64,000 bases of DNA from Flavobacteriales bacterium. GTDB lineage: Bacteria > Bacteroidota > Bacteroidia > Flavobacteriales_F > PHOS-HE28. Under the pieces are notes generated by a model that searched no databases, was not told where the DNA came from, and was given only the letters and a program-made list of their open reading frames with translations. Both the position numbers and the translations under genes were made by a program. Each line of letters starts with the position of its first letter. The stretch's first letter is position 1. The stretch covers positions 36,943-100,942 of the forward strand of contig JAWKNF010000008.1 in assembly GCA_041391825.1 (NCBI GenBank), written 5' to 3'. Below are positions 4,974-21,081 of the stretch, in pieces.

Positions 4974-7528
4974 ATGCTCGTTGAACGACTGATCGCGCAT
5001 GCCGTTACATTGAATGACCATGTCGCGGTCCGTTCGGTAACGGACAGGAGTACTCACGTATGGTGAGCTGCCACGGAGCTTCAGTGCGATCCGGGACTGG
5101 TTGCTGGATCGAGGGATCGAAGCTGGCGACCATGTTGGCATCGCCATGTCCAATGGCCCGGACCTGGCGATCGCTCTGCTTGGTACAGCCATGCATGCCA
5201 CTGTTACTCCGATGGATCCTGCACAGGTCCCCTTGGAATGGAGTTCCGTGCTTCGTCACGTAGGGGCGAAGGCTTTGATCACGGACCCGACCAACGAACA
5301 GGTCGCCCGTTCCGTGGGGCGTTCGTTGTCCATACCAGTTCACGTCATCCCATTTCTTCACGAAGGCCCTTTGGGTCGTTTGGCCGGTGTGGATAGGCCA
5401 GCGAAGGGATTCATGCCACCTGCTGAGGATCATATCCTGTTGATGCATCGAACCTCAGGTACCACGGGTACGAGCAAGCGCGTCCCACTGCGTATGGTGA
5501 ACATCGCTGCGCAGGCTTGCAATACGGCGGAAAGCCTGCTCTTAACCGCTGATGATCGCATTCTACAGGTGATGCCGCTGTTCCATATGCACGGCTTCGG
5601 ATACCTTACGGGTACGTTATGGAGCGGTGGTACAGTGGTCTGTACCCCGGGGCACGATGGAAGAAAGTACCCGGAGTGGTGCCGAGCGTTCCGTCCAACT
5701 TGGTTCTCTGCATCCCCGGCCATTCTTCAGGACATGGCACGGATACATGCGAAACATCCCGATCTCAAGGTCAGTTCACCCTTCCGGTTCGTCAGGTCCT
5801 TGTCCGCCGCCATTTCGGCACCATTGATCGAGGAGATCGAGAAAGTGACCGGCGCTCCGTTAGTGGAACAGTATGGACTGACCGAAGCGCTTTCTCCAGT
5901 GATTGCCAACAGGCCATTGGGTGGTGAACGGAAACGAGGTGCCATCGGCAAGCCTTTCCGCACCGAGGTCCGAATAGTCGATGGGAACGGAAAGGACGTG
6001 GCCGGTGGCTCCACTGGGGAGATCGTGCTTCGGGGGACCGGCGTCATACCTGCATATGCCGAGAGCGACGAGGTCAACACGCGTTCATGGTTCGGTGAAT
6101 GGTTCCGTACCGGGGACTTGGGAATGATCGACGAAGACGGCTTCGTTCATCTTTCGGGTCGCTTGAAGGAAGAGATCAATCGGGGCGGAGAGAAGATCGA
6201 CCCTTTGGAGGTCGAGAACGCCTTGATGGGTCATCCCGGCGTTCAAGCTGCCGCGGCCTTCGCTGTTCCGCACCCGACGCTTGGTGAGGATGTGGCTATT
6301 GCATACGTGCCTTCCGGGGTGCCGATACCGAGCAACGACTTGCGCAACTGGATGCAGGAGCGGATCTCGTTGCACAAGGTACCGAAGGTCTTCCATGCGT
6401 TGGAGGCGCTTCCGGTCACCGCAACCGGCAAGTTGAAACGCTTGGAATTGGCCAGCACCCTGCGATCAGGTTTGAACGGAGCGCTGACGCACGACCATTC
6501 GCTTGACAGTACGGAGGGGTATGAGCACGCCACTGACCGCGCACCGGTCCTGGCCAAACCGGAGCAAGCGGATCGCGCCCCGGATCTGCTCCCGGCCACG
6601 TACATAGAGCGGACCATCGCCATGGTCTGGGGTCAGGAATTGCGGCGTGATCGGATCTATTTGGATGATGACTTTTTCCAGATCGGGGGGGATAGCCTTT
6701 CCGGCGTGCGTACTTGTGCCCGCATCAGTGAAATGCTGGAGGCGAAGGTTGACCTGGCCCTGTTGTTCCGGCGACCTTCCCTGCGCGATTTTGCCGGTGC
6801 GCTGACCTCCAGTGACCGGGTGGACCATTGGCTGAACCTGACCCCGATCCGGCTTTCAGGCCCGTATACGCCATTCGTGTGCGTGCATGGCGATGAAGGG
6901 AACTACAACCTGCCTCGGCTTTTCAGCGACGATCGTCCGTTCATCGGGTTCATGCACCAAGGCGAGGATGGCAAGGGTATGCGGTACAAGACCATCCGTT
7001 CCATGGCACGGCACTATGTGAACGGAATTGCTCGAGGCACGACCCGAAGGGCCCTATATCCTGTCGGATTCAGTACGGGAGGATCCTGGCATTCGAGATG
7101 GCGCAACGCCTGGTTGCCATGGGAAAGAAGGTCCCACTGCTAGTCATGTTGGACACGCGTGGCCCGACCTTCAATTGGTGGCGCTATTCGCCACGAACGA
7201 AACTGGCCGATGCTACGCGGCGAATACCTGCGTCCGCGCTGTGAGCGGTACTTGCGCAAAGGCGTGCCCATCCCTTTCGATCTTCGCAATTTTTACATCA
7301 TCAACACCTACCGCAAGGCCGTGGGCCTACCGTCCGAAGCCCTATGCCGGTGAGGTACTATACATACGGAGCGCCCAACGAGCCGAAGAACTCATGGGTT
7401 GGGATGATCGTTGACCGGTCCGGTGCACGTGGAGGTGGTGGAAGGGAAGCACTTGGCATTATTCGCGAGCCCATGTTGCTGAGTTGGCTTCCGTATTGGA
7501 AAAGTTCATGGAGGACAAGGGGATATGA
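4974..7528 (+). pseudogene. NRPS-like adenylation (acyl/aryl-AMP ligase) + PCP + thioesterase gene. It is frameshifted at the 5' end (about 5045) and several times in the thioesterase domain (about 7030-7500).
   Basis: In-frame stop at 5037-5039; the N-terminus reads MLVERLIAHAVTLNDHVAVRSVTDRS, then shifts frame into TYGELPRSFSAIRDWLLDRG. About 2 kb of AMP-binding domain is intact (SGTTGTSKRV, YGLTE, GEIVLRG, KLKR). The PCP motif DDDFFQIGGDSL is present. The thioesterase pieces are spread over three frames: GYSTGG-like, ILAFEMAQRLVAMGKKVPLLVMLDTRGP and HVAELASVLEKFMEDKGI-stop. Confidence 0.7.
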
Positions 7529-7579
7529 TGCCTTTGGAGATCCGGGAATTCCGGCTCTGCGAATGCTGATGTCACTTCT

Positions 7580-8305
7580 TCATCGTCGTGCTGTCAACTC
7601 TCCTTCGATCTGTTCCATCAACACGAGGATCCGCTCCTCGAAGCCTTGATAGATCCGGACCATATGTCCCGCGTGAACACGTTCATGCGCACCACGCCTT
7701 TGAACGGGTTGTCGTCCATGAGCTACGGGATCGATGGGGTAGCCGCTCTTCCAAACGGTGTCCATCACCACCTTGGCGTAAATGTGCGGCCCAGATCGAC
7801 CAGGCTGAAGATGCGAATCGAATCCTTGTTCCACCTTGTTCAGGTAGGTGTAGCGTTCAGAATACAGCGTCGTGATGCTGCGTCGCAAACTATCGTTCCG
7901 GATCAGGTCGAAGCCGATGCTCTTCAGGTTGTCGAGGCCGATGTATTGGGTGTGAGCACCGTGCTCCCGAACAGGTTCCCGTAGTGGACCCGCAAGCGAA
8001 TCATGGAAGGGCGTACGGTCCTCCAAATGCTTCAACACGGCCACATTCCCATTCAACAGGCGTTGGTTCATGCCGATGTTGTACCGGCAATCCTGAAGGT
8101 CCGCCTCCAGGTTGCTGCGCATCTCGGCCAATAGCCCGATTTCCTTGGCGGCTTCCTTGCGCCCGGCGTTCCAGTTGTTCAGCTGCAGGGCCAGGAAGAT
8201 CCCGATCACCACCAGTAGGATCTCGCCTACGGCGTATGTGAGGTAGCGTGTAACGCGACCCTTGGCCAGTAGACCTTGGCGGATCTGGCGGAAGAGGCGG
8301 GTCAT
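7580..8305 (-). CDS. DUF6090-like single-pass membrane protein, paralog 1 of a tandem array.
   Basis: Internal start MTRLFRQIRQGLLAKGRVTRYLTYAVGEILLVVIGIFLALQLNNWN gives the conserved N-terminal anchor. The ATGA overlaps the next paralog. Confidence 0.65.
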   Translation of the reverse strand: MTRLFRQIRQGLLAKGRVTRYLTYAVGEILLVVIGIFLALQLNNWNAGRKEAAKEIGLLAEMRSNLEADLQDCRYNIGMNQRLLNGNVAVLKHLEDRTPFHDSLAGPLREPVREHGAHTQYIGLDNLKSIGFDLIRNDSLRRSITTLYSERYTYLNKVEQGFDSHLQPGRSGPHIYAKVVMDTVWKSGYPIDPVAHGRQPVQRRGAHERVHAGHMVRIYQGFEERILVLMEQIEGELTARR

Positions 8306-9081
8306 GGGTGTGACTGTATCTCGTGTTGCAGCGCCTGGACCAAAGTGTCCGAATGCTGTATCATCGTGTAGGCATGCCTGCGGTTCCGCTCGGTGGAACG
8401 GTGCGATCGGTGAAGTGCGGACTTCAGGTCGATGCATTCGCGGGACCTGCGGTCCAGGTACCACGGATGATCCTTCAATGCGGTACGGCCGTAAACCCGG
8501 TAGTCGTCGGCCAGGTCGTTGAAACCGTATTTGCATTCCTTCCAAGCGTTGTTGGCTTCTTCGTTCCACTCGATGACGTAGCGCTCTTCCCGGTCCAGCA
8601 GTTGATAATACTTCTGGATGCGTTTCATCAGGCTATCGGGACCCAGTGAATAGAAGCGGCCAGAACTGAGCATCTCACGGTATACGGCATTGCTCATGTT
8701 ATACAGGCTGCCGTCATACAATTCGCCTGCTTCCAGCATCCAGACCATGCGCTCCTCATCAAGGCCCTCCGTGATATATGCAATGGCCGTGTCGATACGG
8801 CCCAGCATGGGTGTCCAGCCCATTCGCACCTTCTGGAATGAATACATGGTATCCAAGTAGTGCAGTCGGTCGATGTTGATGGCGAGTTCGTCCTGCATGC
8901 GTTCCATGAGGCGCACATTGGTGCGCTCCTGTTTCCACTGTGCGCTGGTATCATTGACCTGCAGTGCGATGAGGATCCCGATCACCACCAGCACGATCTC
9001 GCCGATGGCATAGACCAGGTAGCGCGTCAGTCGATTCTCCTTCAAGAGGCGCTGCCGGATGGTGTTGAAAATGCGGGGCAT
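8302..9081 (-). CDS. DUF6090-like single-pass membrane protein, paralog 2.
   Basis: MPRIFNTIRQRLLKENRLTRYLVYAIGEIVLVVIGILIALQVN... Confidence 0.7.
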   Translation of the reverse strand: MPRIFNTIRQRLLKENRLTRYLVYAIGEIVLVVIGILIALQVNDTSAQWKQERTNVRLMERMQDELAINIDRLHYLDTMYSFQKVRMGWTPMLGRIDTAIAYITEGLDEERMVWMLEAGELYDGSLYNMSNAVYREMLSSGRFYSLGPDSLMKRIQKYYQLLDREERYVIEWNEEANNAWKECKYGFNDLADDYRVYGRTALKDHPWYLDRRSRECIDLKSALHRSHRSTERNRRHAYTMIQHSDTLVQALQHEIQSHP

Positions 9082-9084
9082 GGT

Positions 9085-9834
9085 TCAGTTTTCCTGGTGT
9101 TCCAGTTCAATGCGGATCCGTTCCCTGCACGCGGCCACCTTCTCCGCAAGGCCCCGGTAGTTGCTCAGCATGTACACGCGCAGATCAAGGTTCATGAGCA
9201 CGGCGTTCTTGAACAAGTCGTCGGTCTTCAGTGCACTGAAGTCTTTTGGGCGCCCCGAACTCAATGCCATGCGCTTGTCCACGCTCGGGTCGATCACCAT
9301 CCTATCGATCACTGCGGGTATGACCACAGCATATTGCAAGGCATGGTCGTCCTGCTTCTCGAAATCGATCACATTGTGATAGCTGAATGAGTAGAGTTGA
9401 GTGATCATCATACGCAGGGAGTCGTTGGAGATGATCTCCAGCCCACGTGACTTCAGCGTTTCGTAGGCGCTGTAGTTCATCACCGAGCGTGTGGTGTAAA
9501 GGAGGTTGCCGAAATACTGGTCCATGGTATCGGAATATGCTTCATGCTCCTCCAAGCTTTTCAGTACCATTTCCGCAGCGCGCCGCCGCACTTCGTTGAA
9601 ATCAATGTTGAATTGGATGTCCACGGAATCCGCCTGTAGGTTGTTGGCGATCTCCTTCAGGTACTTGATCTCCACCTGCTTCAACTGCTGTTCGTTGTTC
9701 CAGTTGTTCAGCTGCAGTGCGATGACGATCCCGATGACCACCAGCACGATCTCGCCGATGGCATACGCGAGGTACCGTGTGATGCGGCCCTTGGCCAGCA
9801 GGCTCTGGCGGATGCTGCGGAGGAATCGGATCAT
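9085..9834 (-). CDS. DUF6090-like single-pass membrane protein, paralog 3.
   Basis: MIRFLRSIRQSLLAKGRITRYLAYAIGEIVLVVIGIVIALQLNNWN. Confidence 0.7.
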   Translation of the reverse strand: MIRFLRSIRQSLLAKGRITRYLAYAIGEIVLVVIGIVIALQLNNWNNEQQLKQVEIKYLKEIANNLQADSVDIQFNIDFNEVRRRAAEMVLKSLEEHEAYSDTMDQYFGNLLYTTRSVMNYSAYETLKSRGLEIISNDSLRMMITQLYSFSYHNVIDFEKQDDHALQYAVVIPAVIDRMVIDPSVDKRMALSSGRPKDFSALKTDDLFKNAVLMNLDLRVYMLSNYRGLAEKVAACRERIRIELEHQEN

Positions 9835-10565
9835 GGGTCTTCGGTCTTGGCCAGTTCACGTTCGATCATGGCCATGAGGCGGCTTGTCTCCTTACGTGCT
9901 ATCTCATATTCACCGGCGATGTGGTTGTTGGTCACCGCCTTCCAGCGCACGGCCGTCTGGAACTCCAGGTCGTCCATAAGACCTTCATAGTCGTGGGGTG
10001 TGGAATCCCACCAAGGCCTGTTGATGCGAACGCGTTTCAGCACCACGGGGAGGATGTTGTGCACCTGGTCCTCGGACAGCATTTCCTTTTCCAGCTTGAG
10101 CAGGCGCGTGATGTCCAGGGAATACAGCTTGGTGATGGCGATGCGGATGCTGTCGTTCCGGATCAGGTCGAAGCCGATGCTCTTCAGGTTGTCGTACGCC
10201 GATGTGTTCAGCGTGGCTACGCCATGGATGAGGATCCGCCCGTAGTGCAGCGACATCGAGTTCTGCCAGGGTCTACGGGCCTCCAGTCCATTGACGATGT
10301 GATCGGCCGAGGCGCCGATGTCCAGGCTCCAGTCGCGGTTGCCCGCATGGTCCAACGAGTCCATGTGAAGGTTTCTGAGCAACTCCTTCAGGATCTTTTG
10401 CTCCTGCACGCTGCGCTTACGGCCCTCGTTCCAATTGTTCACCTGCAAGGCCAACAGGATGCCGATCATCACCAGGGCGATCTCACCAATGGCGTAGAGC
10501 AGGTAGCGGGTGAAGCGGTTCTCTTTAAGCATACGTTGACGGATATGTCGGAAGAACCTGATCAT
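9831..10565 (-). CDS. DUF6090-like single-pass membrane protein, paralog 4.
   Basis: MIRFFRHIRQRMLKENRFTRYLLYAIGEIALVMIGILLALQVNNWN. ATGA overlaps the neighbours on both sides. Confidence 0.7.
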   Translation of the reverse strand: MIRFFRHIRQRMLKENRFTRYLLYAIGEIALVMIGILLALQVNNWNEGRKRSVQEQKILKELLRNLHMDSLDHAGNRDWSLDIGASADHIVNGLEARRPWQNSMSLHYGRILIHGVATLNTSAYDNLKSIGFDLIRNDSIRIAITKLYSLDITRLLKLEKEMLSEDQVHNILPVVLKRVRINRPWWDSTPHDYEGLMDDLEFQTAVRWKAVTNNHIAGEYEIARKETSRLMAMIERELAKTEDP

Positions 10566-11302
10566 GGGGCCAGTTCCTTGTCGATCATTTCAATAACCTT
10601 TTCCGCCTGCCGGATACTGATCTCGAACTGCCTTTTGAACCAACCTTCGAGCTTCTGTTTCCGATGTGTGATCAGGTTCCTCAAGTGCTGGTCCCCGATC
10701 AGGCGTTCCGGGTCAACGGGTACGGCGGATCTGAAGAAATCGTATTCCTTCATTTCCTTTAAGTAGTAGTCTCCGAAAGTTTGATGGTCGAACTGGTATT
10801 CTGTGTCCATATACCCCTGCATGTAGTGATAGCGTCCTTCATACAGGTCGCTTAACGCGGCTCTGAGCGTGTCATTGGAGATCAGGTCGATGCCCGTTGC
10901 TTTCAGGTTCTCGTAGGCGGCTTTGTTCGGCGTGAAAACGCCCTGGGCAGGGACATTCCCGAAATGCACGTTCAAGGAGTCGTGATAGGGGATGGCACCG
11001 TCGATGAAGTCGATAAGGATGGCAGCGGAACGAGAAACGATGCCATAGATGCGCATGTCCTCCTTGAAGTCCTTGATGTCCACAAGGAGGTTGGTCCTTA
11101 GTTCCTTGAGCGTCGCTTCTTCCAGGCGCGCTCTTTTCCGGCTGTCGTTCCAGTTGTTCACCTGCAAGGCGAGCAGGATGCCGACCATCACCAGCACGAT
11201 CTCGCCGATGGCATACGCGAGGTACCGCGTGATGCGGCCCTGGGCCAGCAGGTTTTGGCGGATGGTGCGGAAGAACCTGATCATGGTGTTTGCGTTCGCC
11301 AA
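10562..11302 (-). CDS. DUF6090-like single-pass membrane protein, paralog 5. The true start is probably MIRFF at 11284.
   Basis: MANANTMIRFFRTIRQNLLAQGRITRYLAYAIGEIVLVMVGILLALQVNNWN. Confidence 0.7.
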   Translation of the reverse strand: MANANTMIRFFRTIRQNLLAQGRITRYLAYAIGEIVLVMVGILLALQVNNWNDSRKRARLEEATLKELRTNLLVDIKDFKEDMRIYGIVSRSAAILIDFIDGAIPYHDSLNVHFGNVPAQGVFTPNKAAYENLKATGIDLISNDTLRAALSDLYEGRYHYMQGYMDTEYQFDHQTFGDYYLKEMKEYDFFRSAVPVDPERLIGDQHLRNLITHRKQKLEGWFKRQFEISIRQAEKVIEMIDKELAP

Positions 11303-11317
11303 GATGGCAAAGAGAAA

Positions 11318-11352
11318 GGGAGGTCGAACATGAACCTCCCTTTCTTTTCATA
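11318..11352. terminator. Perfect 12-bp-stem hairpin (AGAAAGGGAGGT-N10-ACCTCCCTTTCT) with a flanking T-run. Candidate intrinsic terminator separating the lipoprotein gene from the DUF6090 array.
   Basis: Inverted repeat read directly from the sequence. TTTTCAT lies on the + side and only a weak U tract on the - side. Confidence 0.4.
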
Positions 11353-11378
11353 GGACGTCGGTCCTTGGCCACTCGACC

Positions 11379-11945
11379 TTACTTCTTCACCGCTGGAGCT
11401 GCAGGGGGGGTGGTGCCCAATTGATGGAACACGGAGAGGCGGTCAAAGTAGGTATAGCTCTTGGTGATCTTGCCGCCCTCGACGCGTGCATCGTAGAAGA
11501 AGGGCACCCTGTAAGGCTTGCCGGTGGCGTTGTCGGTCGCTGAGTAGGTGCCCCAGTAGTGTACCCAATCGCCAGCGTATTCGTTGCCATCCGCCACGGT
11601 GACACATTCGGCGAATACTCTCTCCATCCGCTGGTCACTGCGGGTGCTGTCGTTCTTCATCCAGCCTTCGATGACCCCTTCCACATCCGAGGAATCCGGT
11701 GGCGTGAACGTGTTGTTGGCGTAGTATCCCGGGGCCACGGCAGCGCGGATGGAAGCCTCATCGGCCTTGATCAGTGCATTCAAGTACGATTCCACCACAG
11801 CTATGTTCGCATCGGCCTCCTCGGGAATGGAGGATAGCGGATGTTCATAGTGTTCGGGAACAGGTGGGCAAGGCTCGGGTGCTGCACAAGAGAAAAGCAG
11901 CAGACCAGGGAGTGCTATCGCAAGTACTTTCTTCGTGGTGTTCAT
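11379..11945 (-). CDS. Lipoprotein with a SnoaL-like/NTF2-like domain.
   Basis: Signal peptide MNTTKKVLAIALPGLLLFSC (lipobox Cys). The rest of the protein has a SnoaL/ester-cyclase-like fold signature. Confidence 0.6.
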   Translation of the reverse strand: MNTTKKVLAIALPGLLLFSCAAPEPCPPVPEHYEHPLSSIPEEADANIAVVESYLNALIKADEASIRAAVAPGYYANNTFTPPDSSDVEGVIEGWMKNDSTRSDQRMERVFAECVTVADGNEYAGDWVHYWGTYSATDNATGKPYRVPFFYDARVEGGKITKSYTYFDRLSVFHQLGTTPPAAPAVKK

Positions 11946-12061
11946 GTGGTGGGGTTTTGGTTCGGATCAGGGTTCGGTCCAAAGGTGTTCCTTCAGGAGG
12001 ATCCGTCACCTCGTAGAAATACCGGTTTTCGGATCTGTATGGATCCGCCTACCTTCGAAAA

Positions 12062-12505
12062 ATGAACTGGACGAAAGTGTTAGGGTATGCTGAACAAGGA
12101 AATCCGGCGCCGGATGAACGGGTCGAACGGACAAAGGAGGAGTGGCGTTCCTTCTTGTCGGCAGAAGCTTACCGCGTGACCCGCGAGCACGGCACGGAGC
12201 GGGCATTCAGTTCGCAAATGTGCTCGCTTTTCGAACCGGGCGAGTATGCTTGTGTATGCTGCGGGACCACCCTGTTCGACGCTGCAACGAAGTTCGAGAG
12301 CGGTACCGGGTGGCCATCATTCACACTTCCCATCAAGGAGAACGTGGTCGCCTATAAGAAGGACGGTAGTTATGGCATGGTCCGTATCGAGGCCTTATGC
12401 AATACCTGCGATGCTCATTTGGGGCATGTGTTCCCTGATGGCCCCGCACCGAGCGGATTACGCTATTGCATGAACGCGGTGTCCTTGAAGAAGGCTGACG
12501 GGTGA
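12062..12505 (+). CDS. msrB: Peptide-methionine (R)-S-oxide reductase MsrB.
   Basis: Two CxxC pairs (CVCCG and CNTC), GTGWPSF and RYCMNAVSL, the SelR hallmark motifs. Confidence 0.85.
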   Translation: MNWTKVLGYAEQGNPAPDERVERTKEEWRSFLSAEAYRVTREHGTERAFSSQMCSLFEPGEYACVCCGTTLFDAATKFESGTGWPSFTLPIKENVVAYKKDGSYGMVRIEALCNTCDAHLGHVFPDGPAPSGLRYCMNAVSLKKADG

Positions 12506-12547
12506 TCGTGATATGCGCTGCTGGGGAAGGGTGAAGGCCGGTCCTGT

Positions 12548-13963
12548 TCAGCGTGTCAGTGCCTTCAGCATGCCGCTGAACACCATCCCGTGGAAGGGAT
12601 ATACGGCATACCAATAGATCCTGCCGCTGAGGCCCTTTGGTCGAAAGGTCGCCGTTTGCTGCAATCGGTCATCGACGAGCTTGAATTCGAGCCAAGCCTC
12701 TCCGGGTAGTTTCATTTCAGCGAAAAGGAGCAAGCGACCCTCTTCCTTGTTCGCGTACAGAACGCGCCAGAAGTCCACCGCGTCGCCCACATCCAGTCGG
12801 TCGTCATGTGTGCGCCCACGCCGCAGACCCACACCACCCATCAACTTGTCCATGAAACCTCTTATGCGCCAGAGCCAAGTGGCACTGTACCAACCGGTAT
12901 TGCCACCGATCCGCCAGATGCGCTCGATACACTGCGCACGATCCTTGAAGGTTCGAGATCGTTGGTCCACAAAGCAGCCGAAGCGTGGCACCTCGATGAA
13001 TTCCGATACCTCCGATTCGAATCGACCGCTGATCCGCGAATCCTTCCAACTGGAGATCACAGCGTTGCTCTCCACCTTCTGCAAGGTCCTGTGGAGCGCT
13101 TCTTCATATCCGATGGGGGTGATGTTCAGCAGTTCGGCCAGTGCATGATCACGACAGACCACCTCGATCTTCATGCTGTCCACCAGCGATGAGGCAAGCT
13201 TGTAGGAGGTGGAGGTGATGAAGTAGAGCCAATAGGAGGAAAGCTTCGGTGTCATCACCGGGACCACACCGATCCACCGTTTCAGCCCTCGGACCTTGGC
13301 GAAACCGAGCAACATCTCCTTGTACGAGAGAACGTCCGGTCCACCGATGTCGAAGCTTCTACCATAGGTTTCTGCACGCAGTAACGAGTGTCGGAGGAAG
13401 CGGACCACATCGGCGATCCCGATCGGTTGGCAAAGTGTATCGAGCCATCGGGGGGCGATCATGACAGGAAGCTTCTCGACCAGATCGCGAATGATCTCGA
13501 AAGAGGCGCTGCCGGAACCAATGATGATGCCCGCCCGCAAGGTGGTCAGCGGATGGTCGCCCAAGGCCAATTCGGTTTCCACATCCTTTCTCGAGGCAAG
13601 GTGTTCGCTCAATCCTTGCTCATTGACAATGCCGCTCAGGTAGATGACCTGCTGCAGTCCTCTTCCTTGCATCGCCTTCCGGAAGTTCCGTGCGCACCGC
13701 AGTTCCATTTCCCTGAAATCCTCCGATGCGGACATCGAGTGGATGAGGTAATAGGCCGCATCGATCCTCGCGGGAAGTTCACCAAGCGTTCGCTCGTCAA
13801 GAAAGTCCGCTTCAACGACCTCTAAGCTCGTACGAAGTGCTTCCGGTGGATGGAATCGATCCCGATTGCGCACACAGCAGACCACTGTATGCCCATCCTG
13901 GACCAATGCGGGCAGAAGACGTTGGGCGATGTATCCGGTGGCACCGGTCAGGAGGATCCGCAT
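12548..13963 (-). CDS. NAD(P)-binding atypical SDR/NmrA-like oxidoreductase fused to a DUF2867 domain.
   Basis: MRILLTGATGYIAQRLL Rossmann motif; C-terminal DUF2867-like tail ...YWYAVYPFHGMVFSGMLKAL. Confidence 0.7.
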   Translation of the reverse strand: MRILLTGATGYIAQRLLPALVQDGHTVVCCVRNRDRFHPPEALRTSLEVVEADFLDERTLGELPARIDAAYYLIHSMSASEDFREMELRCARNFRKAMQGRGLQQVIYLSGIVNEQGLSEHLASRKDVETELALGDHPLTTLRAGIIIGSGSASFEIIRDLVEKLPVMIAPRWLDTLCQPIGIADVVRFLRHSLLRAETYGRSFDIGGPDVLSYKEMLLGFAKVRGLKRWIGVVPVMTPKLSSYWLYFITSTSYKLASSLVDSMKIEVVCRDHALAELLNITPIGYEEALHRTLQKVESNAVISSWKDSRISGRFESEVSEFIEVPRFGCFVDQRSRTFKDRAQCIERIWRIGGNTGWYSATWLWRIRGFMDKLMGGVGLRRGRTHDDRLDVGDAVDFWRVLYANKEEGRLLLFAEMKLPGEAWLEFKLVDDRLQQTATFRPKGLSGRIYWYAVYPFHGMVFSGMLKALTR

Positions 13964-14049
13964 CTACTATCGTTCAATGGTCGGGCCGGGGTGATGGGTT
14001 CATGCCAGGATCGCACCCTCGGCATGGTCACCGAATACCTTGGCCAGAC

Positions 14050-14565
14050 CTAGTTGATGGCGATGCCCCACCAACCAACACAGCCAGGCATCGGCCTCGT
14101 GTCGGTCCTTGGGTGTTGGAGGAGGAGTTGGAACATACCTGCCATCAAACGTAGGTGATGCTGTGGGATGGACCGCCTGCCGGGTATCTTCAGATAATCC
14201 CATTCGATCCGCACCAATGCGGATGGATAGGCTTCGAACACTTCGATGCCAGACGATCGCCATTGCGACGCCGCCTGTATGGCACGTGCCGTAAGACCTC
14301 CAAGGAACATGGGGCTCATGCCGCCTGTTTCGCGGTCAGCACGTCTGAAGAAATGGTCGTTTCCCTTGCCGTAGTAGGCTGCCGGAAGCGTCAATGGCGC
14401 ATCCATGTAAATGGCTGCAGGTCCGATCCCCTTCACCCGTTCCATCATCCAGCTATCCGACTCTTGACCTTTCATGGACCGCTCGAAGCGGAACAGACCA
14501 CGATCACGGTAGCAGATGACCGTGGTACCTGCATACTGTGCGCCGTAGTCGATCCCGATGAACAT
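14050..14565 (-). CDS. Hypothetical protein, possibly an RNase H-like fold (DUF429-like).
   Basis: Internal start MFIGIDYGAQYAGTTVICY... The upstream extension of the ORF is not protein-like. Confidence 0.4.
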   Translation of the reverse strand: MFIGIDYGAQYAGTTVICYRDRGLFRFERSMKGQESDSWMMERVKGIGPAAIYMDAPLTLPAAYYGKGNDHFFRRADRETGGMSPMFLGGLTARAIQAASQWRSSGIEVFEAYPSALVRIEWDYLKIPGRRSIPQHHLRLMAGMFQLLLQHPRTDTRPMPGCVGWWGIAIN

Positions 14566-14651
14566 CACGCTCAGAACACCCCGCTTTGCGGAAGGTTCAT
14601 CGGGCCGTGCAGTTGTGCGAACAGGATGGCATGGGCGGCTGTTCAAGTTCC

Positions 14652-15343
14652 ATGAAACAAGCACCAGTTCTGATCATCGGCGCCACACGAGGCATTGGCC
14701 GTGCGATCGCCCAAGGTCTGATCGCAGATGGTCATGATGTGGTCTCTGCCAGCAGGGGAGTACAGGCACCGGAAGGGGTCCTGAAGCACATTCAATTCGA
14801 CTCCGTGGGCGCTGAATTGGACGTAAGTCTGCTGCCTGACGCGCTAGCAGGCTTGGTGTACTGTCCAGGAAGTATCGACCTCAAGCCGCTGCGATCGGTC
14901 CGTGCAGAGGAGGTACGGGATGCCTTCGACCTCAACGTGGTCGGAGCGCTGAACGTTGTTCGGGCGTGCGCCGATCGACTGAAACGGAGCCCGGGCTCCG
15001 GCATCGTGTTGTTCAGTACCGTGGCGGTCCAGCGTGGCTTGCCTTTCCATACGGGAGTGGCCGCCGTGAAAGGTGCAGTAGAAGGCATGGCACGGGCGAT
15101 GGCCGCAGAATTCGCCCCCACGGTCCGGGTGAATTGCATCGCGCCGGGGCTCACCCGCACGACACTTGCGGAAAAGCTGTTGAACACACCGGAGAAGGAA
15201 AAGGCTGCTGGCGACAGGCATCCGATGAAGCGCGTGGGTGAGCCGGAGGATGTCGCTGCCATGGCGCGGTTCCTGCTTTCCCCACAAGCTTCGTGGATCA
15301 CGGGCAGGTCATCGGAGTGGATGGAGGCATGAGCGCCATCTGA
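14652..15343 (+). CDS. Short-chain dehydrogenase/reductase (SDR) family oxidoreductase with a single-base frameshift near the 3' end (about 15300).
   Basis: MKQAPVLIIGATRGIGRAIA (TGxxxGIG). After ...SWITG the canonical C-terminus QVIGVDGGMSAI-stop is in the other frame. This is consistent with a one-base deletion in ACCGGG. Confidence 0.75.
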
Positions 15344-15423
15344 GCGCTCGCTCACCCGCTTGGACCGTTAGTGTCCGGACCACCTTCACATGGATACCTT
15401 ACCTTCAGTGCAAAGAACCGATC

Positions 15424-15642
15424 ATGAACGACACGAATGGTTCCAATGATCCGCTGAGCCCGGTCTACCAGCACGATCCAGGAAGAGTGCGGCCGGTGAA
15501 ACGCATCGGCAGCTTGGGTTCCAAACAGAACCTCGCTGTGCTGATCGTCATCGCCGCAGTGCTTCTAGCGCTCTTTGCCTTGGTGGGAGGAAGCGAAGAA
15601 GAACAGGTACCTGCAGAGCCGGTTCCGACCGAGGTCCAGTAG
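15424..15642 (+). CDS. Small membrane protein (72 aa, one TM helix).
   Basis: MNDTNGSNDP...NLAVLIVIAAVLLALFALVGG... starting at the internal ATG. Confidence 0.35.
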   Translation: MNDTNGSNDPLSPVYQHDPGRVRPVKRIGSLGSKQNLAVLIVIAAVLLALFALVGGSEEEQVPAEPVPTEVQ

Positions 15643-15648
15643 TGACTA

Positions 15649-16194
15649 TCACCGTAGTGCGATGTGCAGCTCCTCGGGGGTGATGCGCCACGCACCGTAG
15701 TGCTGGATCGTATGGGGTTCAACAGCACTGCAACGTTCGAATATCTTGACCAGAACAGCTAAGGTGTCAGGCATATGGATGTGCTCGATGGAGGTCCCTT
15801 GTTCGAAGTTGCAGGAGATGGAACGCGGTGCTCCCTGCTCCGCCGCGTGGTAGGCGCTGATCACTTGCGAACGTATTGCTTCGTTGCTGTCCTCGAGCTT
15901 GCGTTGGGGGATGTAGAGCGTGACGGTGGTCAAACCATCCTTGGTGTGGGTGAATTCGGAACATCCCTCAGGTTCAGGGACAATAGGATCCGATGATGGG
16001 GTCGATGTTGGGCGCATCACATCGATCCGGTCGATATCCTGCTCTCCGAAAGGATCCTGCATCGAGGGGTGCGGTTCCGGGGGAAGAGCGACCGTTGGAG
16101 TTTCCGCTACCACGCTCTGCACCCGATCACCTCGTTCATCTGTGCATGCCAACAGGAGCAAGAACAAGAAGGGTATTGCACGTGAGTTGCTCAT
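15649..16194 (-). CDS. Lipoprotein, hypothetical.
   Basis: MSNSRAIPFLFLLLLACTDE signal peptide with lipobox Cys. Confidence 0.5.
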   Translation of the reverse strand: MSNSRAIPFLFLLLLACTDERGDRVQSVVAETPTVALPPEPHPSMQDPFGEQDIDRIDVMRPTSTPSSDPIVPEPEGCSEFTHTKDGLTTVTLYIPQRKLEDSNEAIRSQVISAYHAAEQGAPRSISCNFEQGTSIEHIHMPDTLAVLVKIFERCSAVEPHTIQHYGAWRITPEELHIALR

Positions 16195-16333
16195 TGGAGC
16201 GGTCTGCAAGGCAAAAGAGCAGATCCCGCGCCAGATCGTTCGATCGGCGGTGATGGTGGGTGACTGGTGCCGGGCCTCGTTCGCTCGTGAAGGACATTCG
16301 CGTGCGATCGTTGATGGGGCTTAGGTTTACCCC

Positions 16334-17551
16334 GTGATCTCGGCGACCCGGGCATACCGCTACTACCTGGACTCCTTCAACGGCCTCAGCCGAGAGGTAT
16401 GGATCCTCGCGGGCATCACCTTCGTGAACAGGGCGGGAACGATGGTGATCCCCTTCCTCTCGCTCTACCTCACGATGGACATGGGTTTGAGCCTTCAGCA
16501 GGTAGGTTGGGTCATGAGCTCGTTCGGCGCGGGTTCCGTGCTTGGTTCATGGTTGGGCGGACGGTTGAGCGACAAGCTCGGGTTCTACGATGTGATGATC
16601 GGTGCGCTGCTCACCTCGGGATCGGCCTTCATCCTTCTGCAGTTCGTGCACGGCTTCCTTCCGTTCTGCGCGGGCGTTTTCGTGCTCATGCTGCTGTCCG
16701 ATGCCTTCCGACCGGCCATCTTTGTGGCGATCAGGGCCTATGCCAAACCGGAGAACCGCACGCGCGCGATCACCTTGATCCGTTTGGCGATCAACTTGGG
16801 CTTCAGCCTCGGTCCGGCCATCGGCGGTCTCATCATCGCCACGTGGAGTTATAGCGGCTTGTTCTGGGTGGACGGTCTTACCTGCTTCATTGCCGTTCTC
16901 TTGTTGATCCGCGGTCTGCCACGCAAGAAAGCGCGATCGGACGGCGACGCGGCACGGACCGATGCCAAGCGCTCCCCATACCGCGATGGTCCGTTCCTTT
17001 TCTTCCTGCTCACCACCGTGCTGATCACCATCCCTTTTCTGCAGTACTTCAGCACGATGCCGCTGTTCTACAACGAGGTCCACGGACTCAGCGAATTTCA
17101 GATCGGTGTGCTCTTGGGTATGAACGGGCTGCTGATCTTCTTGGTGGAGATGCCCTTGATCAAGTTCTGTGAGGACCGGGCCATCGACCGGTTCCGGATC
17201 CTTCGCTTCAGTGTGTTGCTCTTCGTGTTCAGTTTCGTGGTGCTGAACGTCTTTCCGACGATCGCCTTCCTCTGGATCGGCATGGTGCTGATGACCGTGG
17301 GAGAAATGCTCAATTTCCCGTTCATGAACCGTTTCGCCTACGATCGTTCCGACCACGGGCCACCCGGTGCGTACATGGCACTGTTCACCATTTCGTGGAG
17401 CGTTGCACACATCATCGGTCACACCTTGGGGCTGAACCTCGTGGCGCAATTCGGATTCGAGCTTACGTGGTGGTTGTTCGGGGGAATGCTCGTAGTGGCG
17501 ATCGGCATGCTGTTCCTTTTGGAACGCTTGGTAGGCCTCGAGGGTCCATAG
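16334..17551 (+). CDS. MFS transporter.
   Basis: Twelve predicted TM helices and a GxLxDKxG-like motif (GGRLSDKLG). Confidence 0.75.
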   Translation: MISATRAYRYYLDSFNGLSREVWILAGITFVNRAGTMVIPFLSLYLTMDMGLSLQQVGWVMSSFGAGSVLGSWLGGRLSDKLGFYDVMIGALLTSGSAFILLQFVHGFLPFCAGVFVLMLLSDAFRPAIFVAIRAYAKPENRTRAITLIRLAINLGFSLGPAIGGLIIATWSYSGLFWVDGLTCFIAVLLLIRGLPRKKARSDGDAARTDAKRSPYRDGPFLFFLLTTVLITIPFLQYFSTMPLFYNEVHGLSEFQIGVLLGMNGLLIFLVEMPLIKFCEDRAIDRFRILRFSVLLFVFSFVVLNVFPTIAFLWIGMVLMTVGEMLNFPFMNRFAYDRSDHGPPGAYMALFTISWSVAHIIGHTLGLNLVAQFGFELTWWLFGGMLVVAIGMLFLLERLVGLEGP

Positions 17552-17647
17552 CTGCGGTTCAAGGCTCCGACCTGTTCTCGACGATCGACGCTCAGCCAGC
17601 ATTGACCAAAGGTTGAAACCCTATTGCTGAATGCGCGTTCAAGGCCC

Positions 17648-19432
17648 ATGAAAATTGCGGCCGCTTCCTCGTGGATGTTCGCTATTGCCTTCCTGTTGTC
17701 AGCTTCGGCCGGGATGGGCCAGACCATTGGTCCCCGCAATCCGGGCACCACAGGGAACAACTCCGGTGTTGGTGCCACGAATTGGGCCAGCACCGGTAAC
17801 AGCATTTCCAGCGACAATAACTATTCGACGGTTTCGACCAAGGGCATCACCCGCTACTTGACCACCACCAATTATGGGTTCGCAATACCAACTCCTTCCG
17901 GTATCGCCGGGATCCAATTGGAAGTGGAGCGTAGCACCAATGCTCCAACGGCCGTGGCGCTGTTGAATGGTTGGAGCACAGGGACCACCAAGACCATTTC
18001 CGCTGGGACCGATCGTTGCCTGATCGTCACATACGTTCAGGAGAACGGCATCAATACGCGCGACATCACCGCGATGACGTACGGGGGACGGGCCATGACG
18101 CAAATAGCTGAACAAACAGCGGGCACAACTGGAGGGTTTTCGGCCCGTTTGGAAGTTTGGATGTTGCTCGAGGCGGATCTGTCCTTGGCCTCGTCCACCG
18201 CGATCGTTCCCACCTTCGGCTCGTATACGGCCTTGGAATACTGTGAGGCCTTCAGCTCTGCGGTCTTCCAGAACGTGGACCAGACCCAGCCCGTCGGGAG
18301 CGCGATCAGCACGGGCGCTTCGAACCCACCCAGCTCGGCCAATCCCCACCAATTGGGGACTCCGATCACGACCTTGGCAGGAAGCATGGCGATCAGTGTT
18401 GTCACCGAAGGGAACAATACCACACCGGCTATCACCGACGGAGGAACGAATACCTATACGATCAATTCAGGTTACACGGAAGGCACCGACCTCTATTTTG
18501 CCAATACCTCGGTAGCGCCGACTTCCGGCGCCTGTTTTCAGACCGCGCACAAGGCGATCGCCTCGAACGGTACCGAGCAGCCGAGCTGCACCTTCAATGG
18601 TAGTGTGAATCGGTGGGCGATGATCGCGTTCACGTTGCAACGATCGAACGAATTCGATCATCGTGTGCAATTGATAAAGGGAGGTGTGATCGGTGGTCTC
18701 GACCTATCGAATACCTCGCCTTGGCCAACAACGGATACCTACGCGACCTATGGTGGTCCGCTGGAGTTGTGGGGACGGAGTTGGACCACGGCGGAAATCA
18801 ATGCGAGCAATTTCGGGGCAGCGCTAGCAGCAAAAGTTGCGAACGGCACCGCCCGGGTGGACCACATGCGGGTCACGGTGTACTACTACAGCACCTTGCC
18901 AGTTGAGTTGCTTTACTTCCATGCAGAAGCGGATGGCCCTTCGGTCCGCTTGGAATGGGCGACGGCTACCGAGCGTGAGAATGATCACTTCATTGTTCAG
19001 CGGAGCAGTGATGGGTTCGTCTTTGAAGATGTGGCACGGATCCCGGGTGCGGGCGACTCGAATGTTGCACGTTTCTATTCGATCCACGACCCAAGACCGA
19101 ACATGGGCATCAGCTACTATCGATTGGTGCAGGTCGACAATGATGGGACGACCGATGAAAGCGCGATGGTACCTGTGGATATGATGAGTGCTGAACTTTT
19201 CATCTATCCGAACCCCGCGGAAGAGGTGCTTACGATCCGCGACCCTGAGGCACGTGCGGTCGAGGTCGGTGTCCATGATGGATCCATGCGCTTGGTGCGA
19301 TCCGCGAACATCCGATCGGAGGAGCCCATCCTCCTATTGAGTGGGCTTCCTGATGGCACGTACACATTATTGCTGCGCGCTGGTGATGATACTCAGGTTT
19401 CGCGCTTGGTCAAGGTATCGCGATCCAATTAG
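17648..19432 (+). CDS. Large secreted protein with a T9SS C-terminal sorting domain.
   Basis: Signal peptide MKIAAASSWMFAIAFLLSASA. An ELLYFHAEADGPSVRLEWATATERENDHFIVQRS domain is present. The CTD reads ELFIYPNPAEEVLTIRDP...GTYTLLLRAGDDTQVSRLVKV. Confidence 0.75.
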   Translation: MKIAAASSWMFAIAFLLSASAGMGQTIGPRNPGTTGNNSGVGATNWASTGNSISSDNNYSTVSTKGITRYLTTTNYGFAIPTPSGIAGIQLEVERSTNAPTAVALLNGWSTGTTKTISAGTDRCLIVTYVQENGINTRDITAMTYGGRAMTQIAEQTAGTTGGFSARLEVWMLLEADLSLASSTAIVPTFGSYTALEYCEAFSSAVFQNVDQTQPVGSAISTGASNPPSSANPHQLGTPITTLAGSMAISVVTEGNNTTPAITDGGTNTYTINSGYTEGTDLYFANTSVAPTSGACFQTAHKAIASNGTEQPSCTFNGSVNRWAMIAFTLQRSNEFDHRVQLIKGGVIGGLDLSNTSPWPTTDTYATYGGPLELWGRSWTTAEINASNFGAALAAKVANGTARVDHMRVTVYYYSTLPVELLYFHAEADGPSVRLEWATATERENDHFIVQRSSDGFVFEDVARIPGAGDSNVARFYSIHDPRPNMGISYYRLVQVDNDGTTDESAMVPVDMMSAELFIYPNPAEEVLTIRDPEARAVEVGVHDGSMRLVRSANIRSEEPILLLSGLPDGTYTLLLRAGDDTQVSRLVKVSRSN

Positions 19433-19635
19433 TTCGATCCGTTCAGGATCGCAAAGTTGTCAGATCCGGGGCCCGAGAAGACCTTCATTGCCTCTCGAAT
19501 GCCTTGTTCTCATACCGAAACGAGCTTTCGGCCCCCTGTGGATCGCTCCGTGCGGTATGATCAAGATCCGCAAGACGCTGCTGATCTCGGCATTGGTCCG
19601 GATCGAGCTTCCCATCTCTCGGGCATCGAGGATCA

Positions 19636-21081
19636 GATCTTATCCAAGGTCTCCAGCAAGAACCCCCAGAACTTCTGTACAGAGGGATTCTGGACGCGCT
19701 CATCGGGGAGTGTGCTCCCTTGATGTTCGGCCCAAAGGAGATCATTTCCATTTGCGGGTAGTTGGTGCCGAGAATTCCGCATTCCAATCCAGCGTGACAT
19801 GCCAGTACGTGAGGCTCACCATTGAAGCGCTTCCGGTAGATCTCGGACATCAATTTCACGATACCGGCCCCTGGACGAGGCGTCCAGCCTGGATAGGAGC
19901 CTGAGAATTCCACCTTTGCACCAGATCAGTTCGAACACCGCACGGATCGCCAGCGCTTCGTCCATCTTCTCGCTGTCCACCGAACTCCGTGTCAGGCACA
20001 TGGCGGTATAGTTGCCATCCTTCAGTTCAATGCGTGCCAGGTTGTTCGATGTTTGGGTAAGACCATCCACATCCGGGCTCATGCGGTAGATCCTGTTCGG
20101 ACAGGCCTGCACAGCACGCAGGAAACGAGCTTGATCTTCAGCGGCCATGCATTTGGCGGGCGTCTCCGCTGGACCGAGTTCGATCGATAGTTCCGGATCG
20201 GTGGAGAGGTATTCCGACTGGATCACACCTTTCAATTCCTCCAGTTCCGCTTTGAAGGTGTTCATCGTGGCTTCCGGTATAAGGATGGTGGCGACACTCT
20301 CGCGTGGTATCGCGTTCCGCAAGCTGCCGCCTTCGATCGCTGCCACTCGCAGGCGGTGGTGCTCACCGCTCAGCAGGATCCGGTTCATGATCTTGTTCGC
20401 ATTCCCCAGCCCCCGGTGGATATCCATGCCGGAATGGCCACCATTCAATCCGGAGACCACCAAGTTGAATGCCCTGAGGCCGTTGGGTGAGGCTTCCTCC
20501 TTGTATTTGCCCGAGGCAGTTACATCCACACCACCTGCGCAACCGATCGTCAACTCATCATCATCCTCGGTGTCAAGGTTCAGCATGATGCTGCCGTCAA
20601 GGAGCCCACCTTTCAGTTCGAACGCACCGGTCATCCCGGTCTCTTCATCGATCGTAAAGAGCGCCTCCAGCGGTGGGTGGGGGATCGCCGTGGAGGACAA
20701 CAGTGCCATGATCGCGGCCACTCCGATGCCATTGTCCGCACCGAGCGTTGTGCCTTCGGCCTTCACCCAATCCCCTTCCACCTTCATGCGGATGCCTTCT
20801 TCATCGAAGTCGAAGACCGTGTCGTTGTTCTTTTGGTGCACCATGTCCAGGTGGCTCTGCAGTACGACCGTTGTGGCCTTCTCCTTGCCCTTGGTACCGG
20901 GCTTCTTGATGATCACATTGCCGGCGTGGTCCACGTACGTTGATAGTCCGAGCCCTTCGCCGAATTCCTTGATGAATCGGATCACGCGCTCCTCTTTCTT
21001 GCTCGGCCGTGGCACGGCGTTGAGGTCGGCGAAGTGGTTCCAGAGGGCGGTGGGTTCGAGTGCGCGGATGGCTGCGTTCAA
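19636..21081 (-). CDS. pepD: Aminoacyl-histidine (Xaa-His) dipeptidase PepD, M20 family, interrupted by two single-base frameshifts (about 19690 and about 19900).
   Basis: HLDMV, GADNGIGVA, DEETGMTG, then in the shifted frame YPGWTPRPGAGIVKLMSEIY...AGLECGILGTNYPQMEMISFGPNIKGAHSP. The following DERVQNPSVQKFWGFLLETLDKI-stop needs one extra G at CCGAT. Confidence 0.75.

Follow-up and report, generated by a model that had tools for sequence, protein, structure and literature searches.

Five consecutive minus-strand genes of the DUF6090 family, together with a sixth copy elsewhere in the 64,000-nucleotide stretch of Flavobacteriales DNA that we analyzed (hereafter the window), may encode a repertoire of periplasmic modules for recognition or sensing, each of which would report or recruit by way of a common anchor, organized as a co-oriented, recombining battery. 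We assign this reading a probability of roughly one half. With ORF coordinates taken from true ATG starts, the tandem opens with p5 (10562-11284; 240 aa; MEZ4739300.1) and continues through p4 (9831-10565; 244 aa), p3 (9085-9834; 249 aa; MEZ4739298.1), p2 (8302-9081; 259 aa), its most divergent member, and p1 (7580-8305; a 241-aa open frame); the solitary p6 (28228-29052; 274 aa), likewise on the minus strand, lies 17 kb from the array. A sequence-only reading of the window had placed six ORFs at these positions and proposed that they belong to DUF6090 (PF19578). All six are present, and all score above the Pfam gathering threshold of 23.5 bits, at 35.9 (p5), 30 (p4, where the match covers the anchor only), 38.7 (p3), 31.1 (p2), 30 (p1), and 26.3 bits (p6). 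GenBank already annotates them as "DUF6090 family protein". The Pfam entry describes a Bacteroidota family, which the window proteins match in length (∼240-275 aa) and in their N-terminal membrane helix. Membership in other Bacteroidota genomes is equally clear: a search with p3 gave 1,288 matches, close full-length relatives among them, and the GTDB species genomes contain at least 586 matches, mostly in Flavobacteriales, Saprospiraceae, and Cytophagales. NCBIfam holds no family for these proteins, and our literature search on DUF6090/PF19578 found no paper. One member is anomalous, as the similarity of two internal segments of p1 (∼7936-7995 and ∼7666-7731) to the family is confined to the +2 frame; with L003_6, the p1 orthologue, as the query, tblastn gave LRVHYGNLFGSTVLTPNTSA and LMDDNPFKGVVRMNVFTRD in frame 2. 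The cause is either decay or an assembly error.

The products are predicted to be single-pass inner-membrane proteins composed of a basic, amphipathic cytoplasmic helix of ∼24 residues, a membrane helix, and a periplasmic helical bundle of ∼200 residues. AlphaFold models p3 with a pLDDT of 93, with a helix at residues 2-14, an unbroken helix from 18 to ∼90, and long antiparallel helices thereafter; p2 is modeled with the same architecture (pLDDT 79). The mean net charge over 340 family copies is +5.5 ahead of the membrane helix and -0.3 behind it, which places the N terminus inside. The bundle appears to have an up-down topology, with the conserved ectodomain patches probably located close to the membrane. 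Among solved structures we found no specific relative of the periplasmic bundle, the match to the four-helix-bundle sensor domains of chemoreceptors and histidine kinases being no better than that to designed bundles. A Pfam scan of the six proteins detected no signaling domain, and no ligand pocket was identified.

The proposed combination of a constant anchor with divergent ectodomains was borne out, with protein identity between paralogs of 61-80% over the first 46 codons versus 10-30% over the rest, and DNA identity of 64-87% at the 5′ ends versus 32-45% at the 3′ ends. An independent repeat finder returned the same module as a 143-nt direct repeat (D1) in five minus-strand copies, 719-776 nt apart and 69-87% identical, which spans the amphipathic helix, the membrane helix, and a QxNNWN collar (reference copy 9694-9836; other copies 8165-8307, 8941-9083, 10425-10567, and 11144-11286). 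The C-terminal domains are mutually divergent, as had been claimed, yet they are homologous, with a common motif around G131, D138, and Y148. Across 340 copies, information content is 2.2-4.0 bits per column at residues 1-50 and 0.5-2.0 bits in the ectodomain, where secondary peaks occur at 51-70, 121-150, and 231-250 and where conservation drops as sequence distance from the anchor grows. At 21 of the 23 positions between Y24 and N46, a single residue predominates with a frequency of 0.64 or more. The membrane helix is conserved on every face, carries an invariant Glu28 near its cytoplasmic end and a G35xxxA39 motif, and is followed by the periplasmic QxNNWN collar. A profile search with the anchor alone matched 10,617 representatives of 50%-identity clusters. 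The retention of one protein motif by 340 copies spread over ∼80 genomes, and by >10,000 clusters of this kind, points to purifying selection on the protein, rather than gene conversion, as the main reason for the conservation of the anchor. The likeliest ground for such selection is that every paralog docks into a common membrane partner, or that the paralogs dock into one another.

The genes are tightly coupled. The sequence-only reading counted ATGA stop/start overlaps at four of five junctions; there are four junctions, and the overlap occurs at three of them (p5/p4, p4/p3, and p2/p1), the p3/p2 junction reading TGAaccATG with a 3-nt spacer. Coupling itself extends to the family, in which 38% of 183 junctions overlap (31 of them as ATGA) and 69% are 20 nt or shorter, and the array genes are probably co-transcribed. 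An inverted repeat (I1) at 11310-11348, with 15-nt arms followed by a T-rich run on the minus strand, lies between a SnoaL-like lipoprotein gene (11379-11945) and p5 and looks like a terminator. The array therefore probably either has its own transcription start or needs read-through. A scan for sigma-70 promoters and terminators found none above the shuffled expectation; Bacteroidota promoters fall outside its scope.

In 82 related loci, all 345 copies are co-oriented. The number of copies ranges from one to 20 or more, and 66 copies have no neighboring copy within 300 nt. Arrays, the longest of 20 genes, are typical of the family, and a genome often has several of them. These data bear on the idea that the co-expressed paralogs associate through their membrane helices and build up an oligomer in the envelope, homomeric or heteromeric, that might act as a scaffold, channel, or stalk, in which case the array would supply subunits rather than alternative receptors. 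A membrane helix that is conserved on all faces and bears a small-xxx-small motif would suit such assembly, and the stop/start overlaps suggest matched expression. The range of copy numbers, the copies that stand alone (p6 included), and the shifts in membership and order between close relatives are, however, unlike machines of fixed stoichiometry such as minor pilins or Mce operons, and we consider co-assembly unlikely.

Turnover of the ectodomain repertoire between related genomes is rapid. Orthologues of p3, p4, p1, and p2 are spread over four genomes, each with different neighbors, and array membership and gene order differ even between close relatives; the p3 orthologue in locus L001 is 78% identical and the p4 orthologue in L005 is 79% identical. 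The NTF2-like genes upstream of the 18-copy array in L001 are unrelated, and no synteny was found there. In L083, similarity to the window stops just past the 5′ module of p1. This last comparison, which puts a recombination breakpoint at the module boundary, and the pairing of a constant 5′ module with variable 3′ parts are what a cassette or shufflon system would offer, with a single expressed copy being swapped by site-specific recombination at the conserved module. Each copy is nevertheless a complete gene with its own ATG in the same orientation and under purifying selection, no inverted repeats flank any unit, and no recombinase domain occurs among the Pfam-scanned window ORFs around the array. 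We therefore largely reject this model and regard it as highly improbable.

Gene conversion between the paralogs is supported. The 5′ ends of p3 and p5, described in the sequence-only reading as nearly identical over 130 nt, are in fact 87% identical over ∼140 nt, with a 64-nt stretch containing 2 mismatches and one exact run of 39 nt (minus strand; 9739-9777 in p3, 11189-11227 in p5). The probability of such codon identity by chance, given the amino acids, is ∼3e-6. A relative ∼95% identical at the DNA level (L085/L086) does not show this identity: over the corresponding 39 positions, its p3 and p5 orthologues have 8 differences. Two derived bases are common to the two window copies of the tract. 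The same codon is used by p3 and p5 at 31 of 37 sites, against 16.7 expected; family-wide, codons are shared in 1.28-fold excess within the anchor and in 1.02-fold excess outside it, and selection on the mRNA near start sites could account for part of the excess in the 5′ module. A second exact tract of 42 nt joins p1 (7893-7934) and p4 (10153-10194; minus strand; repeats D2/D3) and falls in the ectodomain motif DNLKSIGFDLIRND, with a chance of codon identity of ∼1.7e-5; over this tract, the amino acids are unchanged in the orthologues L003_6 and L005_2, which show 5-6 synonymous differences. Because it lies in the ectodomain, conversion is not limited to the anchor. The proposal that conversion homogenizes the anchor thus stands insofar as conversion is real in the 5′ module; it is not the main cause of anchor conservation. 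In the battery that we favor, the repeated 5′ module would serve as a recombination substrate giving rise to short conversion tracts and to the gain, loss, or swap of whole units, so that the set of ectodomains would turn over fast with each copy still under purifying selection.

That selection is evident in dN/dS values of 0.08-0.23 overall: 0.18 for p5 (measured against the 95%-identical relative L085), 0.23 for p4, and 0.08 for p2, whose orthologue in L083 is 90% identical. The low overall ratio gives no sign of an arms race. It also speaks against a poly-immunity locus, in which the products would be membrane-tethered periplasmic immunity proteins directed at competitors' diverse periplasm-acting toxins. 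Same-strand arrays of divergent paralogs with quick gain and loss do recall orphan immunity islands, and the periplasmic placement fits. But we found no neighbor family that recurs around the 78 loci, and hence none of toxin, Rhs, or type VI genes, and an invariant anchor is needless for a mere tether. An origin in defense or on mobile elements was likewise set aside, as PADLOC models gave no match at E values up to 1 and neither phage genomes, plasmids, nor IMG/VR viral contigs gave matches. Taken with these observations, a poly-immunity function is improbable.

We found no conserved neighboring gene family. A Pfam census of 113 flanking proteins listed 135 families, none in more than 3 proteins. 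When 879 neighbor proteins were clustered all against all, the top cluster was a TPR histidine kinase found within 10 kb in 11 of 78 loci, lying 7 nt to 7.5 kb from DUF6090 genes in mixed orientation and within 300 nt in three loci; we regard this association as a weak lead. The suggestion that p6 sits downstream of a MacB-type efflux operon did not hold, because p6 and the macB-like gene (25787-28195, plus strand) are on opposite strands and converge, with their stops 33 nt apart. Only 2 of 82 loci have a MacB-like gene at a distance of 10 kb or less and no conserved co-oriented adjacency to MacB/FtsX genes was found, so the proximity looks like chance. The Pfam scan of window ORFs (1.7-29.6 kb for sigma factors) yielded no sigma-factor, kinase, or recombinase domain, and an ECF sigma cluster lies within 10 kb in 6 of 78 loci.

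Comparison with known systems narrows the possibilities further. Of the sensor, anti-sigma, or receptor sets to which the array had been likened, a receptor or sensor is still plausible, but an anti-sigma factor is not, since only ∼24 cytoplasmic residues are available where ∼80 or more are needed and the scanned window ORFs yielded no candidate for an adjacent, co-transcribed ECF sigma gene. Four-helix-bundle sensors of chemoreceptors and histidine kinases (Tar, PcaY, PilJ, NarQ) have two membrane helices and a signaling output, whereas a DUF6090 protein has one helix, ends at its bundle, and lacks a HAMP, kinase, or methyl-accepting output. Type IV pilin-like proteins resemble DUF6090 in pairing a conserved hydrophobic helix at the N terminus, in which a Glu is invariant, with C-terminal domains that vary, and in being encoded by coupled genes in tandem; they differ in that the DUF6090 leader is 27 residues long and the C-terminal fold is all-helical. 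The pilin/pseudopilin motif requires Gly at -1, a hydrophobic residue at +1, and Glu at +5; in DUF6090 the corresponding sequence is YAIG-EIVLVV, with the Glu at +1 (G27-E28), and we reject the assignment. The sole sequence hint of pilin kinship is a nonsignificant geopilin match (E = 0.74). The arrangement that we propose is comparable to that of single-pass accessory proteins, which use helix-helix contacts to modulate membrane machines such as kinases. YycH and YycI, which act on WalK through their membrane helices, are regulators of this kind. They likewise combine an N-terminal anchor with an extracytoplasmic domain, from which output is possible only via the membrane helix; they are not homologous to DUF6090, and the window ORFs scanned contain no kinase domain. 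A shared docking partner for DUF6090, if there is one, would be encoded elsewhere in the genome.

A partner encoded at a distance would also be expected if the anchor worked in the manner of ExbD, TolR, or MotB, the single-pass components of proton-driven 5:2 motors. Its Glu-bearing helix would then be enclosed by a ring of the ExbB/TolQ type, and the variable bundles would pass the energy on to various targets in the periplasm. The two layouts agree in that the cytoplasmic N terminus is short and basic and the membrane helix after it, conserved on all faces, has its invariant acidic residue near the cytoplasmic end; the lack of a neighboring partner gene is also in keeping with such a role. 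This likeness to ExbD/TolR is a resemblance only: no Pfam match to ExbD/TolR was found at E values up to 1, the periplasmic fold is helical rather than the ExbD alpha/beta domain, and neither the top recurrent neighbor clusters nor the 25 listed flanking families include one that resembles ExbB/TolQ, making a motor subunit very doubtful. A broader and bolder form of our preferred reading, that DUF6090 arrays are a new, Bacteroidota-wide class of modular periplasmic receptors in which dozens of interchangeable helical-bundle heads per genome feed through one Glu-bearing helix into a common inner-membrane machine and are reshuffled at the 5′ module, strikes us as rather unlikely; candidates for that machine would be a proton-driven ExbB/TolQ/GldL-type ring or the TPR histidine kinase.

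No paper within reach of our searches records DUF6090 arrays as long as 20 genes, gene conversion between their members, or the invariant anchor with its Glu. The repeated 5′ module breaks short-read assemblies, which is relevant to the annotation of DUF6090 loci, and conversion and unit turnover at this module matter for the comparison of strains. The hosts of DUF6090 include Bacteroidota of ecological importance in marine and wastewater settings. Such invariance of the anchor implies that it either has a specific partner or self-assembles, and finding this interaction could reveal a new mode of envelope sensing or organization in these bacteria.

The five consecutive minus-strand genes and the sixth copy recognized in the sequence-only reading were borne out by ORF listing and translation, each with a true ATG start. 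In transcription order, these are p5 (10562-11284), p4 (9831-10565), p3 (9085-9834), p2 (8302-9081), and p1 (7580-8305), with the solitary p6 (28228-29052) also on the minus strand. A Pfam search placed all six in DUF6090 (PF19578), as had been proposed, with scores of 26.3-38.7 bits, above the gathering threshold of 23.5; NCBIfam and PADLOC returned no match for these proteins. GenBank lists five of the six under the name "DUF6090 family protein" (MEZ4739296-300 and MEZ4739314); p3 matches a protein of a Flavobacteriales MAG there at 100% identity, whereas the exact sequence of p4 is absent from the protein collection searched. The array is a correctly spotted, previously annotated member of a catalogued family. 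The ATGA overlaps claimed for four of five junctions occur at three of four (p5/p4, p4/p3, and p2/p1), the p3/p2 junction reading TGAaccATG without overlap. Between the SnoaL-like lipoprotein gene (11379-11945) and p5 there is a strong hairpin (11310-11348, 15-nt arms) followed by a T-rich run on the minus strand, with room for a promoter of only ∼25 nt between it and the p5 start codon.

Arrays are a general habit of the family, of which the five genes here are a modest example given that up to 20 copies occur elsewhere. A 50-residue anchor-only profile, searched against representatives of 50%-identity clusters, matched 10,617 of them at E ≤ 1e-3 and 8,314 at E ≤ 1e-10. The matches are mostly 236-268 aa long; a subclass of 341-354 aa carries an unannotated extension, and TPR or DUF6197 domains occur at the C terminus of rare members. 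One genome per GTDB species was scanned, yielding at least 586 confirmed matches; among the matches listed the main carriers are Flavobacteriales, Saprospiraceae, and Cytophagales, with some Balneolaceae and Ignavibacteria. All 345 DUF6090 genes in the 82 fetched loci lie on the strand of the query copy. The largest locus has 20 copies (Winogradskyella vincentii), followed by 18 in Croceivirga thetidis and 18 in the metagenome contig L001, including a p3 orthologue at 78%. With ATG starts refined, 38% of 183 junctions overlap (31 ATGA; 27 with an 8-nt overlap), and 69% are ≤20 nt. We note that the L001 array (at least 18 tandem genes at 5957-20750 of a 946 kb contig, JGI 3300048833) is split by an IS200-like Y1 transposase gene (17421-17882). 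Two of its copies, L001_4 and L001_11, match exactly over 350 nt of the C-terminal part and have N termini of different flavours, which makes them mosaic genes.

An amphipathic stretch, one membrane helix, and an extracytoplasmic C-terminal domain had been read from the sequence, and structural models agree. The AlphaFold model of p3 (64-sequence alignment; pLDDT 93, pTM 0.82) has an amphipathic helix at residues 2-14, a single continuous helix at 18-95 that includes the membrane segment (∼25-45), short helices at 102-109 and 122-130, long helices at 138-176 and 206-248, and a small hairpin at 179-196; the model of the most divergent copy, p2, follows the same plan (pLDDT 79). Net charge averages +5.5 N-terminal to the membrane helix and -0.3 C-terminal to it across 340 family members, which puts the N terminus on the cytoplasmic side and the bundle on the periplasmic side. 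We consider an ExbD-like motor subunit very unlikely.

Within the window, the copies share 61-80% protein and 64-87% DNA identity over the first 46 codons, compared with 10-30% and 32-45% thereafter, so the 5' ends are indeed more alike than the 3' ends at the DNA level. A repeat finder independently detected five direct repeats of 143 nt (69-87% identity). The C-terminal domains are divergent, as had been stated, yet they are still homologous, sharing invariant G131, D138, and Y148. Each alignment column carries 2.2-4.0 bits of information at residues 1-50 and 0.5-2.0 bits within the ectodomain, with lesser peaks at 51-70, 121-150, and 231-250. From Y24 to N46 the dominant residue has a frequency of at least 0.64 at 21 of 23 positions, and Y24, G27, E28, L31, I36, and A39 are at about 1.0; conservation thus extends to every face of the membrane helix. 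We infer that this invariant Glu-bearing helix may dock into a common partner or into other copies and that the variable bundles would serve as alternative periplasmic recognition modules. To the overall picture, recognition modules docking through a common anchor, we assign a probability of about 0.5; four rival readings share much of the rest. That the paralogs build a hetero-oligomeric structural complex is a reading to which the same anchor is relevant; we hold it to be unlikely, though with a real chance.

Gene conversion or recombination had been offered as what may homogenize the anchor. p3 and p5 share an exact 39-nt run (9739-9777 and 11189-11227) within a 64-nt stretch that has two mismatches, and they encode 31 of 37 identical amino acids with the same codon, where local codon usage would give 16.7; the observed level occurred in 0 of 200,000 simulations. 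Decisive here are contigs L085 and L086, which match the window at ∼95% identity over 9737-13000: between their p5 and p3 orthologues, 8 of these 39 positions differ. Compared with their own orthologues, the two window copies have 6 and 5 differences, respectively, and they have in common two derived bases found in neither orthologue, the pattern that conversion postdating the lineage split would leave. In the ectodomain motif DNLKSIGFDLIRND, p1 (7893-7934) and p4 (10153-10194) share an exact 42-nt tract, at which the orthologues from other genomes encode the same amino acids with 5-6 synonymous differences. Family-wide, paralog pairs with C-terminal identity below 40% show codon sharing of 1.28 times the expected level in the anchor, against 1.02 times outside it; at 40 of 43 loci the anchor has the higher ratio. 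On these sequence comparisons, conversion between copies is real. It is not the main cause of anchor conservation, however, which at phylum-level distances has to be attributed to protein-level selection.

Array content turns over quickly at the repeated 5' module. Four different genomes carry the orthologues of p3, p4, p1, and p2, amid neighbours that are unrelated, and at locus L083 an 85% DNA match spans p2 and ends just past the 5' module of p1, the ectodomain beyond being unrelated. The p2 orthologue of L083 and L084 has other flanking paralogs than in the window. L085 and L086, independent short-read contigs from close relatives, both end ∼100 nt into the p3 module, which evidently breaks assemblies. 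Each copy is under purifying selection, with dN/dS of 0.18 for p5, 0.23 for p4, and 0.08 for p2 (flanking genes, 0.05-0.09).

p1 has an anomaly of its own. Two stretches of ∼20 codons match DUF6090 only in the +2 frame (gene nt 311-370, window ∼7936-7995, reading LRVHYGNLFGSTVLTPNTSA; gene nt 575-640, window ∼7666-7731, reading LMDDNPFKGVVRMNVFTRD), which implies four pairwise-compensating indels, and still the 241-codon frame is open throughout. The p4-identical tract starts exactly where the frame is restored (7934). The abutting AMP-binding/PCP gene (5101-7143, plus strand) is expected to encode a thioesterase domain at its 3' end, and the motifs PEGPYIL, GFSTGG, AFEMAQRL, and VEGKH are scattered over three frames at ∼7000-7650 (plus strand), requiring at least five frameshifts in ∼600 nt. 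An 8 kb low-GC island (37.5-45.5 kb) is likewise shattered. True decay and a local error in the consensus, in a part of the MAG that varies between strains, are equally likely.

The family has no conserved neighbouring gene. A Pfam census of 113 array-flanking proteins gave 135 families, each seen at most three times. When 879 proteins around 78 loci were clustered, the top cluster was a TPR-HisKA_3 histidine kinase at 11 loci by raw count, followed by a short-chain dehydrogenase (10 loci), a DUF5916/CBM9 protein (9), a beta-lactamase-like protein (8), and an ECF sigma factor (6). In three loci the kinase is no more than 300 nt from a DUF6090 gene, and in others up to 7.5 kb away, in mixed orientation. 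It adjoins DUF6090 genes in L077 (8259-10223, 7 nt upstream on the same strand), L022 (10804-12780), L081 (6704-8656), and L004 (3923-5712), sometimes accompanied by a LuxR-type response regulator, and DUF6090 proteins of L076 and L028 carry a C-terminal TPR domain. A functional link to the kinase is possible.

The window array is flanked by lipid and redox genes and the SnoaL-like lipoprotein gene. The scanned ORFs around it contain no regulator, sigma-factor, or recombinase domain, and we find a cassette-switching system hardly credible. The suggested anti-sigma role fails on this absence of a sigma-factor domain and on the rarity of a nearby ECF sigma factor (only six of 78 loci). Phage, plasmid, and viral collections held no DUF6090 matches; a poly-immunity locus seems to us distinctly improbable. 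A MacB-accessory role fails on two counts: p6, said to lie directly downstream of the MacB-type efflux operon, is convergent with the macB-like gene (25787-28195, plus strand), and MacB-like genes occur near DUF6090 at 2 of 82 loci. Elsewhere in the window, a 602-aa protein bearing a C-terminal sorting domain for type IX secretion (Por_Secre_tail; 17624-19432, plus strand) fits a Bacteroidota host.

The searchable papers do not mention DUF6090. New at the family level are the very large arrays, the invariant anchor, the conversion between copies, and the lack of a partner gene nearby. While they do not yet reveal a mechanism, these family-level points make DUF6090 a reasonable experimental target.
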